A DNA stretch of 64,000 nucleotides from Escherichia coli (GTDB lineage: Bacteria; Pseudomonadota; Gammaproteobacteria; Enterobacterales; Enterobacteriaceae), in the NCBI RefSeq assembly GCF_044324785.1, contig NZ_CP172127.1, one strand, 5' to 3'. A model generated the notes under the pieces. That model searched no databases and was not told the DNA's origin. It saw only the letters and a program-made list of their open reading frames with translations. Position numbers and translations under genes: made by a program. This document shows positions 2,602-54,425 of this stretch, piece by piece. How positions within the stretch are numbered: position 1 is the stretch's first letter; each line of letters starts with the position of its first letter.

Positions 2602-3388
2602 TGAACGTTGGCCAGTGCGGCTGTTGGTGCCAGATAGCCAGGTTTACCAGCAGCCCTGCCGGAACGTGCATATTATTCATAATGCCCAGCGTTCCGGCGT
2701 CCACCTGCGTCGCGCCGTAGTTCCACATAAAGTAGCCAATCCCGGAAGCCACCACGCCAAGAAACACCAGAATGCCCCATTGCAGCGTGGTTTGCGGCAT
2801 TTTCTGCGCATTTCCCAGCAAGAACCATGCAATCACCGCCACCAGGAACGCGCCAAGATAGAACCACGCAAAGGCGTTATGCTGCGGCATCGGGCGAGTT
2901 TCCATCAGACGTTTGTAACCCACCATGCCGATGGCAAAAGTGATATTGGAGAGCTGCACCAGCAGCAGGCCAGTCCAGAAGTGGTCGGTGACCTGATCAT
3001 AGCGAATAATCCCGGCACCAATCACCGCCAACAAGGCGCTAAAAGCATAGCCCCAGCGCAGACGGCGCTGACTCATGATGTCATAAATCAACGTGATGTA
3101 GAGCGGCGTCAGTACGGTGAACAGCAACAATTCGGAGACCGTCAGGTAGAGATAGGCGCGAAAACTCAGCATATACATCACGCCGAGCTGCATCGCGCCC
3201 ACCAGCATATACAGGCCGACCGTTTTCAGGCTATTGCCACGGGTACGCAGAAACGGTAAAAAAACGAGTGCCGCCAGGCCAACGCGCACCAGCACCGCAA
3301 AATAGCTATCGACGTGCCCCGCAAGGTACTCGCCATAAAAGCTAAAGGAGAAGGCCCACAGAATCGTGGTGATGATAAGTAGCGCCAC
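2489..3388 (-). CDS. yigM: EamA/DMT-family inner membrane transporter
   Basis: 299-aa polytopic hydrophobic ORF in the conserved position between metR and yigL; its 3' end overlaps the metR 3' end convergently. Confidence 0.85.
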
Positions 3389-3463
3389 AATGGAAAACTC
3401 TTTGATTAACGAGTATCCATTGTAGCGAAGTATCAGGTTGACAACTGACCAAATAAAGAACGA

Positions 3464-4264
3464 TTACGATAAATAGAGCTTACGCAGATAATGCGGCACT
3501 GCGTCCTCGGCGTTAGTACCAATCACTTCCAGCTCCGGATGCAGATCTTTCAGACGCTGGTGCGCACTGCCCATAATGCAGCCTTTCCCCGCCATCGACA
3601 GCATTTCGGCGTCGTTCATGCCATCGCCAAAGGCAATGCAATCTTGCAGGCTGTAGCCCAGTTTCTTCGCCACCGCTTCCAGCGCATGACCTTTCGACAC
3701 GCCGCCCGCCATCACTTCCAGACAGGTTAAGGTAGAGAAACTAACGTTGACGCGATCGCCCCAGCGAGCGTTGATCGCCTGCTCCAGCGGCAGAAGTTGT
3801 TCATGGGAATCGCAGGTGAAGAACACTTTGCTGACGCCTTCCGGCTCCAGTAATCCCGGCTCATACAGCGCATATTTGAACACCGCTTCTTTAAAAAAGC
3901 GCATCTCTTCCGGGCGATGGCGATTCATAAACCATTCGTCGTCGCGATAAACATTAGTAATGATGTCCGGATTGTCGTTGACTACGCCAAACAGATCGCT
4001 GGCAATGTCGCGATCCAGGTTATGAGCAAAAATCAGATTGCCATCCAGATCGTGAACGCGCGCGCCATTGGAGGTAATCATGTAAGACTTAATCTCCAGA
4101 TTATCGCGAATTTGCCCCACATCAACGTGGTGACGACCGGTCGCAAACACAAAGTTGATGCCGCGCGCGGTGAGCAGCTTCAGAGTTTCTTTGGCGTAAG
4201 GGGATAACGTATGGTCGGGAGAAAGTAACGTGCCATCTAAATCAGACGCAACAACCTGGTACAT
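3464..4264 (-). CDS. yigL: HAD-superfamily (Cof-type) sugar-phosphate phosphatase
   Basis: The ORF extends to 4390, but the start is placed at the internal Met (MYQVVASDLDGTLLSPDHTLSPYAKETLKLL...) giving ~266 aa; HAD motif DxDGTL at the N-terminus; 'cat' at 4262..4264. Confidence 0.85.
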   Translation of the reverse strand: MYQVVASDLDGTLLSPDHTLSPYAKETLKLLTARGINFVFATGRHHVDVGQIRDNLEIKSYMITSNGARVHDLDGNLIFAHNLDRDIASDLFGVVNDNPDIITNVYRDDEWFMNRHRPEEMRFFKEAVFKYALYEPGLLEPEGVSKVFFTCDSHEQLLPLEQAINARWGDRVNVSFSTLTCLEVMAGGVSKGHALEAVAKKLGYSLQDCIAFGDGMNDAEMLSMAGKGCIMGSAHQRLKDLHPELEVIGTNAEDAVPHYLRKLYLS

Positions 4265-4271
4265 AAGAAAT

Positions 4272-5294
4272 TTAAACCTCTGTAGAGCGGTTTCCGCTGG
4301 GTGAGTTATGCCTGTTGAAAAAATCAACGATGGCGTGGAGCGCGACTGAGCGCATTGCGTCCTTTTCAAAAAGGATCTCATGGTACGCACCTTTAATTAC
4401 CAACGGCCGTCCTCCTTCGACAGGATGGCCCGCGGCGGTGCGGAGTTCACAAAAACGATCGTGCATGCGGTTATCCACCACGCGTTCCTCTTCAGCTTGT
4501 AAGAGAAGCGTTGGCGTGGCGTCATCACCCGCACCGGCTAACACCTGTTCGCCAGCCAGAATACTTTCGCGTACCCAATGGTAGGTTGGCCCACCGACGC
4601 GAATCGTTGGGTCATCAGCATAGAAGCGTAAGTTACGTCGATATCGCTGTCTGCTGTGGGTCAGTACGTTGATAGCAAACGGCAACGCGCGCCAGCGCCC
4701 GGTGCCTATTGCATAGCCATCACGGAAACGTGGATGCGCTTCGGCCCAGTTGAGGATTTGCCGTGCCATAAATGACGGCATACGAATCACGATCCCAAAC
4801 ATTGGCGCAGTTAGCGCAATGGCGTCACATACACCTGGATGGCGTTGCAGAAATAATGTGGAGATCGCACCGCCCATTGAATGTGCCAGTATATAGCGTT
4901 TACGCCACGGACCGGGCTGAACCTCCTGTTGCCAGAATGCCGCCAGATCATCAACATAATCATTAAAGCGATTAACATGCCCGAGATGCGGATCGGCTAA
5001 CAGGCGACCGGAACGTCCCTGCCCGCGATGGTCGATGATTAAGACATCAAACCCCAAATGGAACAGGTCATAGGCCAGTTCCGCATATTTTACGTAGCTC
5101 TCAATACGCCCCGGGCAGATGACTACCACCCGGTCATGGTGCTGTGCGCGAAAACGGACAAAGCGCACCGGAATGTCATCCACACCAGTAAATTCTGCTT
5201 CATCACGCTGACGCCAGAAATCAGTCAGCGGTCCCATGGTAAAAGCAGCAAACGCGTTTTCTCTTGTTTCCCAGTCTTTTTGCTGCTGAAACAT
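4272..5294 (-). CDS. pldB: Lysophospholipase L2 (alpha/beta hydrolase)
   Basis: 340-aa ORF MFQQQKDWETRENAFAAF... with GHSMGG nucleophile-elbow motif; immediately upstream of yigL on the same strand. Confidence 0.92.
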   Translation of the reverse strand: MFQQQKDWETRENAFAAFTMGPLTDFWRQRDEAEFTGVDDIPVRFVRFRAQHHDRVVVICPGRIESYVKYAELAYDLFHLGFDVLIIDHRGQGRSGRLLADPHLGHVNRFNDYVDDLAAFWQQEVQPGPWRKRYILAHSMGGAISTLFLQRHPGVCDAIALTAPMFGIVIRMPSFMARQILNWAEAHPRFRDGYAIGTGRWRALPFAINVLTHSRQRYRRNLRFYADDPTIRVGGPTYHWVRESILAGEQVLAGAGDDATPTLLLQAEEERVVDNRMHDRFCELRTAAGHPVEGGRPLVIKGAYHEILFEKDAMRSVALHAIVDFFNRHNSPSGNRSTEV

Positions 5295-5404
5295 CGGGTA
5301 ATCTGCCTCTTAAACCACGTAAAATCGTTTTTTTAAGCGTGCCTGACACAACGCTGCGACAGTAGCGTATTGTGGCACAAAAATAGACACACCGGGAGTT
5401 CATC

Positions 5405-6025
5405 ATGACCTTAGAATGGTGGTTTGCCTACCTGCTGACATCGATCATTTTAAGCCTGTCGCCAGGCTCTGGCGCAATCAACACCATGACCACCTCGCTC
5501 AACCACGGTTATCGCGGCGCGGTGGCGTCTATTGCTGGGCTTCAGACCGGACTGGCGATTCATATTGTGCTGGTTGGCGTGGGTTTGGGGACGCTATTTT
5601 CCCGCTCAGTGATTGCGTTTGAAGTGTTGAAGTGGGCGGGCGCAGCTTACTTGATTTGGCTGGGAATACAGCAGTGGCGCGCCGCTGGCGCAATTGATCT
5701 TAAATCGCTAGCCTCTACTCAATCGCGCCGACATTTGTTCCAGCGCGCAGTGTTTGTGAATCTTACCAATCCCAAAAGTATTGTGTTTCTGGCAGCGCTA
5801 TTTCCGCAATTCATCATGCCGCAGCAGCCACAACTGATGCAGTATATCGTGCTCGGCGTCACCACTATTGTGGTCGATATTATTGTGATGATCGGTTACG
5901 CCACCCTTGCTCAACGGATTGCTCTATGGATTAAAGGACCAAAGCAGATGAAGGCGCTGAATAAGATTTTCGGCTCGTTGTTTATGCTGGTGGGAGCACT
6001 GTTAGCATCGGCGAGGCATGCGTGA
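5405..6025 (+). CDS. rhtB: LysE/RhtB-family homoserine/homoserine-lactone efflux protein
   Basis: 206-aa membrane [34 protein letters not shown]...; conserved position divergent from pldB. Confidence 0.92.
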
Positions 6026-33486: not shown

Positions 33487-33693
33487 AAAAAAACGCCTGC
33501 TCTTATTACGGAGCAGGCGTTAAAACAGGTCTGTATGACAACAAGTGGGTGCTTCACTCAACGTTGTGTCCATGGTGTCTGATGAGGCATAAGCGACATC
33601 TGTCAGTGGACGATAAGCACCGTAAACGGCTCTGCGTCATTCCGGAGTTTATGAGGCACTAAGGCGAACATAAGAGATGGAATGAGCATCTAC
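33487..33693 (-). ncRNA. glmZ: Small regulatory RNA GlmZ
   Basis: Minus-strand sequence GTAGATGCTCATTCCATCTCTTATGTTCGCCTTAGTGCCTCATAAACTCCGGAATGACG...AACGCCTGCTCCGTAATAAGAGCAGGCGTTTTTTT matches the GlmZ sequence as I recall it, including its terminator hairpin and U-tail; located in the hemY-aslA spacer. Confidence 0.9.
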
Positions 33694-37256: not shown

Positions 37257-37333
37257 TGGTCGGCGAGAGAGGATTCGAACCTCCGACCCACTGGTCCCAA
37301 ACCAGTTGCGCTACCAAGCTGCGCTACTCGCCG
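37257..37333 (-). tRNA. proM: tRNA-Pro
   Basis: Minus strand reads CGGCGAGTAGCGCAGCTTGGTAGCGCAACTGGTTTGGGACCAGTGGGTCGGAGGTTCGAATCCTCTCTCGCCGACCA, with encoded CCA. Confidence 0.95.
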
Positions 37334-37375
37334 AAATACTGCTTTTTGAATTTTTAGTTCAATTCTTTAAAGTCG

Positions 37376-37462
37376 TGGTGCGAGGGGGGGGACTTGAACC
37401 CCCACGTCCGTAAGGACACTAACACCTGAAGCTAGCGCGTCTACCAATTCCGCCACCTTCGC
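37376..37462 (-). tRNA. leuT: tRNA-Leu (anticodon CAG)
   Basis: Minus strand reads GCGAAGGTGGCGGAATTGGTAGACGCGCTAGCTTCAGGTGTTAGTGTCCTTACGGACGTGGGGGTTCAAGTCCCCCCCCTCGCACCA (long variable arm). Confidence 0.95.
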
Positions 37463-37482
37463 ATTGTCACAACTTCTAATAA

Positions 37483-37559
37483 TGGGGTGGCTAATGGGAT
37501 TCGAACCCACGACAACTGGAATCACAATCCAGGGCTCTACCAACTGAGCTATAGCCACC
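37483..37559 (-). tRNA. hisR: tRNA-His
   Basis: Minus strand reads GGTGGCTATAGCTCAGTTGGTAGAGCCCTGGATTGTGATTCCAGTTGTCGTGGGTTCGAATCCCATTAGCCACCCCA (with extra 5' G). Confidence 0.95.
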
Positions 37560-37616
37560 ACTACAAATCTTGTTACGCGGTATTACTACCACCGCAGCTC
37601 AAGCGCCGGGACTAAA

Positions 37617-37693
<77 letters not shown>

Positions 37694-39371: not shown

Positions 39372-40112
39372 TCAGAGGTTGCCGGTGTAATGCCAGCGTA
39401 AATAACGCAGCAAACGAAGCTGACGCTTAATGCGGCTCGGCTGCGAAAGTAGGCGGTAGAGCCACTCCAGCCCCAGCGTTTGCCAGATTTTCGGTGCGCG
39501 TTTCACGTGACCGGTGAAAACATCGTAAGTCCCGCCAACGCCCATATACAGCGCATCCGGATGCACCAGACGGCAGTCGCGCATGAAGATCTCCTGCTTT
39601 GGCGATCCCATCGCAACGGTGACGATTTGCGCTCCACTGGCATGAATGCGTTCAAACAGCGCCTGACGCTGCTCGGGTTTAAAATAACCATCCTGACTGC
39701 CAACGATATTCACATTCCACTGATTGCGCAGTTTAGCTTCAGTTTGCGCCAGCACTTCATGTTTACCGCCTACAAGAAATACCGGCGTCCCTTCTTTGCC
39801 TGCGCGCGCCATCAGCTCTTCCCAGAGATCGGCCCCGGCAACGCGGGAAACCTGCGCCTGCGGGTACTTTTTACGTACTGAACGTACAACGCTGATGCCA
39901 TCCGCATATTTAAATTCGGCAGCGTTAATTAACTCCCGGACCTCGGCGTTATCTTCAATGGTCAGCATTTTTTCGGCATTAATGGCAACCAGCGTTCCCT
40001 GCTTAAGCTGCCCGTCAGCGAACAGATAATCGAGGGCGTGCTGCATATCACGCCAACCAATCAACTGTAAGCCACGCAGCGTATAGGTCGGTGCCGTGGT
40101 ATTGTTATTCAT
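39372..40112 (-). CDS. wecG: UDP-N-acetyl-D-mannosaminuronic acid transferase (ECA biosynthesis)
   Basis: 246-aa ORF, last gene of the wec/rff cluster by position. Confidence 0.88.
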
Positions 40113-53965: not shown

Positions 53966-54295
53966 TTACGCCAGGTTAGCGTCGAGGAACTCTTTCAACT
54001 GACCTTTAGACAGTGCGCCCACTTTGGTTGCCGCCACTTCACCGTTTTTGAACAGCAGCAGAGTCGGGATACCACGGATACCATATTTCGGCGCAGTGCC
54101 AGGGTTTTGATCGATGTTCAGTTTTGCAACGGTCAGTTTGCCCTGATATTCGTCAGCGATTTCATCCAGAATCGGGGCGATCATTTTGCACGGACCGCAC
54201 CACTCTGCCCAGAAATCGACGAGGATCGCCCCGTCCGCTTTGAGTACATCCGTGTCAAAACTGTCGTCAGTCAGGTGAATAATTTTATCGCTCAT
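53966..54295 (-). CDS. trxA: Thioredoxin 1
   Basis: Start placed at [50 protein letters not shown]... (109 aa, WCGPC active site); the ORF extends upstream to 54400. Confidence 0.95.
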
Positions 54296-54425
54296 ATATA
54301 ACTCCACAGGAATAAGCCTGGCGTGTTGGTTTCGTTGTTGGTGTAACATTAACCAACTTAAGGTTGACTTTATTTCACCGGATACGCTTTCGTAAAGCAA
54401 TAGTAAGCTGATATTCTACCACACT

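Follow-up and report, generated by a model that had tools for sequence, protein, structure and literature searches.

Regulation of yigL by the small RNA SgrS has been described in Salmonella and E. coli (Papenfort, Sun, Miyakoshi, Vanderpool, Vogel, Cell 2013). According to later accounts, RNase E processes the pldB-yigL transcript, SgrS pairs with the 'pldB-yigL RNA in the pldB 3' region, and this pairing blocks further decay by RNase E in a translation-independent manner (PMC4021124, PMC4098024). The SgrS site is unusually far from the start codon (PMC6354806), and PMC5286369, with reference to Papenfort et al. 2013, gives pldB +935-955 as the interval bound by SgrS, which there occludes an RNase E site at +948-955. 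The E. coli transcript used in vitro spans -191 to +50 relative to yigL (bioRxiv 10.1101/221978). A similar mode of action is known for RydC and cfa (Froehlich et al. 2013), where the sRNA likewise binds far upstream of the start and masks an RNase E site independently of translation (PMC4021124, PMC4098024, PMC6354806). However, the cfa site is located in the long 5' UTR of a primary transcript, whereas the yigL site belongs to the coding region of the preceding gene and, per the published model, is exposed only once RNase E has made a first cut. SgrS-ptsG and SgrS-manXYZ share with SgrS-yigL the sRNA and overlapping seed nucleotides within the invariant SgrS core, CUGAGUAuUGGUG (PMC2760817), which overlaps the yigL-pairing nucleotides. 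The ptsG and manXYZ sites, in contrast, lie at or near ribosome-binding sites and lead to translational repression and decay, whereas the outcome for yigL is stabilization; moreover, unlike ptsG and manXYZ, yigL pairing also uses SgrS nucleotides 168-173, 5' of the invariant core.

Here, we analyzed the pldB-yigL junction in a 64-kb stretch of E. coli chromosomal DNA (the window). The junction has the same genes, in the same order, with the site at the same position and facing the same SgrS seed nucleotides as in the system of Papenfort et al. 2013, and nothing of substance differs except that the window represents a different E. coli lineage. We assign a probability of about 93% to the feature being the established SgrS target in the pldB-yigL operon. 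The site is thus already known, and its confirmation adds nothing new to the mechanism.

Anatomy of the junction and the SgrS pairing site

Coordinates of the features are collected in Table 1. The original prediction that yigL starts 8 bp past the pldB stop is accurate: the spacer is 7 nt long and the A of ATG is the eighth base after the stop. The K-12 RefSeq annotation has the same boundaries, with pldB ending at locus position 1219 and yigL starting at 1227. A 2-kb stretch around the junction is found, annotated as pldB-yigL, in 5425 of 5426 complete E. coli genomes, among which strain ST2747 is the closest match (99.5%). Beyond E. coli, pldB is located directly 5' of yigL and co-oriented with it in all 80 Enterobacterales loci returned by a YigL scan. 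An AGAGGT-like motif is present about 11-13 nt 5' of the yigL ATG in most of the 79 loci aligned. A spacer of 7 nt is peculiar to Escherichia, other genera having 8-74 nt. In Escherichia, a C-terminal extension of PldB runs across the yigL AGAGG motif, leaving the 7-nt spacer; in other genera pldB stops earlier, and many of them carry a GC-rich stem-loop in the spacer (e.g. CCGGCG...CGCCG or GCGGCGCGTGCCGCC). A search against Rfam 15 gave zero matches above the gathering score at 4272..4460, which is unsurprising given that Rfam families do not comprise mRNA target sites. Elsewhere in the window, Rfam matched the GlmZ sRNA (33487-33693), the TrxA 5' UTR thermometer (54266-54365) and a cluster of four tRNA genes (37260-37693), all on the minus strand.

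Table 1. Features of the pldB-yigL junction in window coordinates
Feature	Position	Strand	Basis
pldB CDS (lysophospholipase L2, 340 aa), first gene of the dicistron	5294..4272	-	ORF and annotation
Putative 5' end (approximate) of processed 'pldB-yigL (-191 from yigL ATG = 4455), in GAUCG/UUUUUG	4452..4456	-	-191 from bioRxiv 10.1101/221978
Second constrained block, CAUGAGAUCCUUUUUGAAAAGGAC (CAT GAG ATC CTT TTT GAA AAG GAC), 24 nt	4382..4359	-	synonymous entropy; function putative
Upstream flank of the duplex, ACGC, 4 bp with SgrS 184-187 across a 5-nt/4-nt internal loop	4360..4357	-	RNAduplex
Core of the SgrS site, GCUCAGUCGCGC, contiguous 12 bp with SgrS nt 168-179 (GUGUGACUGAGU)	4351..4340	-	RNAduplex, dimer fold, conservation
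RNase E site reported as occluded by SgrS, AGUCGCGC = pldB +948-955	4347..4340	-	converted from PMC5286369 (passage citing Papenfort et al. 2013)
AGAGG, likely yigL Shine-Dalgarno, within the last pldB codons in Escherichia	4277..4281	-	role putative
pldB stop TAA	4274-4272	-	ORF list
pldB-yigL spacer ATTTCTT, 7 nt	4271-4265	-	sequence
yigL CDS (sugar/pyridoxal-phosphate phosphatase, 266 aa); SgrS stabilizes its mRNA	4264..3464	-	ORF and annotation
yigL ATG; yigL stop	4264-4262; 3466-3464	-	ORF list

The query for pairing was K-12 SgrS (NC_000913.3, 77367-77593), and helices were sought in 30-nt windows, by contiguous-helix scans and by dimer folding; RNAduplex applied to long inputs gave meaningless giant-loop duplexes. 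The original prediction left the pairing site unlocated and staked itself on an SgrS-complementary stretch in the pldB 3' region. Such a stretch is present: searching the minus strand of 4265..4500 for complementarity to the SgrS seed recovered 4360..4340 (12 + 4 bp). Its 12-bp helix is made of nine Watson-Crick and three G.U pairs and has an energy of -19.0 kcal/mol, and the duplex as a whole reaches -25.6 kcal/mol (RNAduplex). Furthermore, an identical 12-bp helix is the main intermolecular contact in the minimum free energy dimer of SgrS with the -191..+50 fragment, in which intramolecular folding competes. The pairing site sits 76-96 nt 5' of the yigL start codon. After coordinate conversion, the published interval +935-955 of pldB becomes exactly 4360..4340, so that our site and the published one coincide, and +948-955 becomes the RNase E site listed in Table 1, the sequence of which is not AU-rich.

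The site is also identical in sequence to alleles that have been studied experimentally. Across 4360..4340 the window does not differ from K-12, and it differs from Salmonella at one base, the unpaired wobble position 4356. Over 271 nt (-191 to +60), the window and K-12 are separated by three synonymous differences, none of them inside the SgrS site, and 5425 of 5426 E. coli genomes contain the 61-nt block 4390..4330 with an identity of at least 95%.

The sgrS gene itself is absent from the 64-kb window, and to judge from its relatives this strain presumably carries and uses SgrS. Nucleotides 162-187 of SgrS do not differ between K-12 and E. coli 042, the latter being a strain that resembles the window at this locus, while the two RNAs differ markedly at nucleotides ~132-161 and 188-212 (L083:15283-15520 versus L001:368-594). 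A megablast search with nucleotides 160-199 of K-12 SgrS found a match in 3242 of 5426 E. coli genomes, about 40% being without an exact 28-mer match; at least part of these missing matches reflects divergence outside the seed, as in E. coli 042.

What the SgrS duplex would do at this junction can be laid out along the published model, which we regard as established and from which we take the operon transcript, its processing by RNase E, its SgrS- and Hfq-dependent stabilization and the independence of translation; the anatomy, the complementarity, the identity to studied alleles and the clade-specific selection come from the present analysis. pldB and yigL would be co-transcribed and the dicistronic RNA cut by RNase E inside pldB, a cut that would take translating ribosomes off the 3' segment of pldB. 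Without SgrS, RNase E would go on degrading the 'pldB-yigL fragment. Under sugar-phosphate stress, SgrR would induce SgrS, whose seed (nucleotides 168-179 and 184-187) is predicted to pair with 4360..4340. The duplex would cover the reported RNase E site at 4347..4340, the yigL message would survive, and more YigL phosphatase would be made, which would dephosphorylate the accumulated sugar phosphates and allow their export. The -191 boundary (~4455) probably marks the processed 5' end of 'pldB-yigL and may be similar to the RNase E consensus; the sequence around it, CGTTTTTGTGAA, is identical in K-12 and Salmonella. The original prediction also held that the processed mRNA is stabilized by SgrS pairing within the pldB 3' region, and this statement draws support from the reviews cited above as well as from the location of the site at the published position.

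In an alternative scheme, SgrS would mainly open an inhibitory structure and thereby activate yigL translation, in the anti-antisense manner of DsrA and rpoS, with stabilization being secondary. Indeed, PMC8383071 words the effect as activation of YigL translation, and the predicted fold of the -191..+50 fragment puts the segment around the site in a long-range helix. However, this minimum free energy fold consists, around the site, of a small local hairpin within the long-range helix and has no pairing with AGAGG or the ATG, so that the site is not sequestered together with the yigL ribosome-binding site, from which it is also distant (~59 nt upstream of AGAGG). Moreover, the fold is no better than those of shuffled sequences (z = -1.25), and three sources (PMC4021124, PMC4098024, bioRxiv 10.1101/221978) describe the mechanism as translation-independent occlusion of an RNase E site. 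We consider primary activation of translation very improbable and retain protection of the processed message from RNase E as the preferred mechanism.

Complementarity and the chance background

The G/U-rich SgrS seed forms many helices across the 64 kb, and the strength of the match at the pldB site depends on the background against which it is judged. Among dinucleotide shuffles of 4265..4500, none of 1000 contained a helix as strong, and 5 of 300 yielded a 30-nt duplex as good. When both strands of the full 64 kb are considered, the pldB helix ranks second; the beyond-chance result is therefore local to 4265..4500. The strongest SgrS-seed helix in the window is on the plus strand at 39574-39586, pairing with SgrS 164-176 at -19.7 kcal/mol; it is antisense to wecG and is therefore a chance match. 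Because an equally strong chance helix occurs elsewhere in the window, complementarity alone is weak evidence and does not prove a site. SgrS-yigL binding is reported to be barely detectable in vitro (bioRxiv 10.1101/221978).

Two further candidate contacts within the operon were set aside. The 30-nt scan of the operon returned a slightly better duplex inside yigL, at 4144..4115 (-26.2 kcal/mol), which we do not regard as functional: it needs SgrS nucleotides 157-167, of which 161-164 are in a predicted SgrS stem, and it has no support in the literature. Dimer folding gave a second helix, between 4234-4226 and SgrS 151-159, which involves structured SgrS sequence and falls inside the translated region of yigL.

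The helix antisense to wecG, as one of several of similar strength that the U/G-rich seed can form in the window, is also an argument for regarding the pldB match itself as accidental, i.e. as complementarity without regulatory consequence at what would be merely a junction of two adjacent genes. Against this stand the exact coincidence with the published coordinates, the identity to experimentally studied alleles, the failure of all 1000 local shuffles to reach the helix and the clade-specific, pairing-preserving synonymous constraint described below. We consider an accidental match hardly credible. Identification of 4360..4340 as the SgrS site thus rests on the coincidence with the published coordinates, on the identity to studied alleles and on evolution.

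Synonymous variation in the SgrS site across Enterobacterales

Selection on the pairing nucleotides was assessed in a codon alignment of pldB comprising 79 sequences, the window included, from the 80 Enterobacterales loci of the YigL scan. When synonymous codon entropy was compared over 301 pldB windows in 50 Enterobacteriaceae, the minimum fell on the 15-codon window 4385..4341 (0.47 versus a median of 1.23). The tetrapeptide R-S-V-A is encoded at 4352-4341 in 43 loci from many genera, and all 12 pairs with SgrS are kept in 42 of these 43. Within the 43 loci, the four 4-fold degenerate sites inside the helix display the changes TCA>TCG, GTC>GTT and GCG>GCA, each of which preserves the pair, and a single CGC>CGA, which breaks one. 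Flanking 4-fold sites that are unpaired vary more freely, three bases (A/T/C) being found at 4356 and all four at 4338. Furthermore, the rare codons CTT and TCA are fixed in the R-S-V-A loci (for CTT, in 42 of 43).

The 36 loci without complementarity present a different picture. In these, the PldB residues are R-A-E/Q-A, and the corresponding codons, at rank 209 of 250, display no constraint. Taxa without the site include Buttiauxella, Mangrovibacter, Shimwellia, Serratia, Yersinia, Pectobacterium, Dickeya, Hafnia, Erwinia, Pantoea and Edwardsiella. The boundary accordingly separates the core Enterobacteriaceae, which have the site, from Buttiauxella, Mangrovibacter, Shimwellia, Yersiniaceae, Pectobacteriaceae, Hafniaceae and Erwiniaceae, which do not. 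The SgrS site is found only where PldB reads M-R-S-V-A-L (4340-4352), although the SgrS core is conserved more widely. Since taxa with the site have R-S-V-A and the others R-A-E/Q-A, gaining the site would have required two amino acid replacements in PldB. Overall, constraint and complementarity come and go together, as selection for pairing predicts, and the alignment shows clade-specific purifying selection on the pairing nucleotides.

For taxa lacking the pldB site, a search for a relocated site with the 13-nt SgrS core, used in place of each species' own SgrS, gave energies of -7 to -14 kcal/mol, which is background level. Short matches to the invariant core (e.g. CGCCAAUAC or ACUCAG), also with background-level energies, are present in the pldB-yigL spacer of L049, L052 (Pectobacterium; -33 to -18 from the yigL ATG), L069 and L073.

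Synonymous conservation over 4382..4340 might instead reflect some other overlapping function. Candidates would be a YigL with an N-terminal extension or a further overlapping reading frame, an internal promoter for yigL, or a palindrome bound by a protein at the DNA level. The original prediction had remarked that the yigL frame is open for about 40 codons upstream into pldB, which is real: read upstream from the ATG, the frame reaches a GTG at 4390 after 42 open codons and is closed by an in-frame TAA (4399-4397) after 44. In addition, an ORF on the plus strand spans 4315..4584, TCCTTT/AAAGGA is an inverted repeat in DNA as well as in RNA, and the upstream part of the conserved region, 4382..4359, is constrained also in taxa without the SgrS site. 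However, the openness of the yigL frame shrinks to 5 codons in E. albertii, another Escherichia species, Salmonella and Citrobacter, with E. albertii, Salmonella and Citrobacter all keeping the SgrS site, and its median over the 79 loci is 12 codons; the conservation of the open stretch that an extended YigL or an overlapping frame would call for is thus not seen among these loci. Because it is not conserved among relatives, the upstream-open frame looks like an incidental feature of the lineage with no bearing on regulation. A promoter and terminator scan of 3300..5500 likewise found neither on the minus strand near the junction and no promoter-like site on that strand within this interval. 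Moreover, nearly all variants in the SgrS helix keep the RNA pairs, including G.U pairs that are workable on the mRNA strand only, and constraint on 4352..4338 vanishes exactly where complementarity vanishes. An overlapping function other than SgrS pairing is very improbable as the explanation of the conserved region, and as an alternative it remains for the upstream block only. For the SgrS helix itself, pairing with SgrS is the reading that we keep.

A more widely constrained block next to the SgrS site

The strongest synonymous constraint in pldB belongs to the block 4382..4359 and not to the SgrS helix. Its synonymous entropy is the lowest in the gene whether or not the taxa carry the SgrS site, with rank 1 of 311 where the site is present and rank 1 of 238 where it is absent. 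In the clade with the site, the codons GAG, ATC, GAA and GAC are invariant in 43 of 43 loci; where Lys is encoded (42 loci), its codon is always AAG, and CTT is retained in 42 of 43.

The block could fold into a hairpin, UCCUUU-UUGA-AAAGGA, with 6 bp between 4375-4370 and 4365-4360 and the loop UUGA (-5.1 kcal/mol, z = -1.9). The sole freely varying synonymous position in the block, 4368, falls in the loop. Pair 4371-4364 has undergone double changes of two kinds, to CTC + GAG in Phytobacter and to CTG + rare CGG in Serratia, Yersinia and Hafnia, and in both pairing is kept. Furthermore, 93% of the hairpin cells are compatible with pairing, compared with 47-75% in shifted registers, and the G.U pairs seen in the hairpin fit the mRNA strand only. 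Against the hairpin, 20 sequences have a G.A mismatch at pair 4371-4364, the double changes represent few independent events, and RNAalifold applied to the 79-locus alignment did not call it. The evidence for the hairpin consists of pair counts and synonymous constraint.

Tentatively, block 4382..4359 may constitute an RNA element in its own right, acting in cis on the pldB-yigL transcript and older than the SgrS site. It could be a recognition structure for RNase E or Hfq that sets the basal decay of the yigL segment, and the SgrS site would have been added next to it later, in the core Enterobacteriaceae, by the change from R-A-E-A to R-S-V-A. We regard this scenario as possible but rather unlikely. 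No description of an element at 4382..4359 was found in the literature searched, Papenfort et al. 2013 itself being outside that search.

Taken together, the pldB-yigL locus is a textbook case of gene activation by an sRNA that protects a decay intermediate against RNase E, docking for this purpose inside the coding sequence of the upstream gene. The site can be pinpointed from sequence and comparative genomics alone, its marker being pair-preserving synonymous variation confined to the clade with complementarity. The added value is modest and consists of the phylogenetic boundary of the site and of the neighboring, more widely constrained block, which is a candidate determinant of RNase E or Hfq action.
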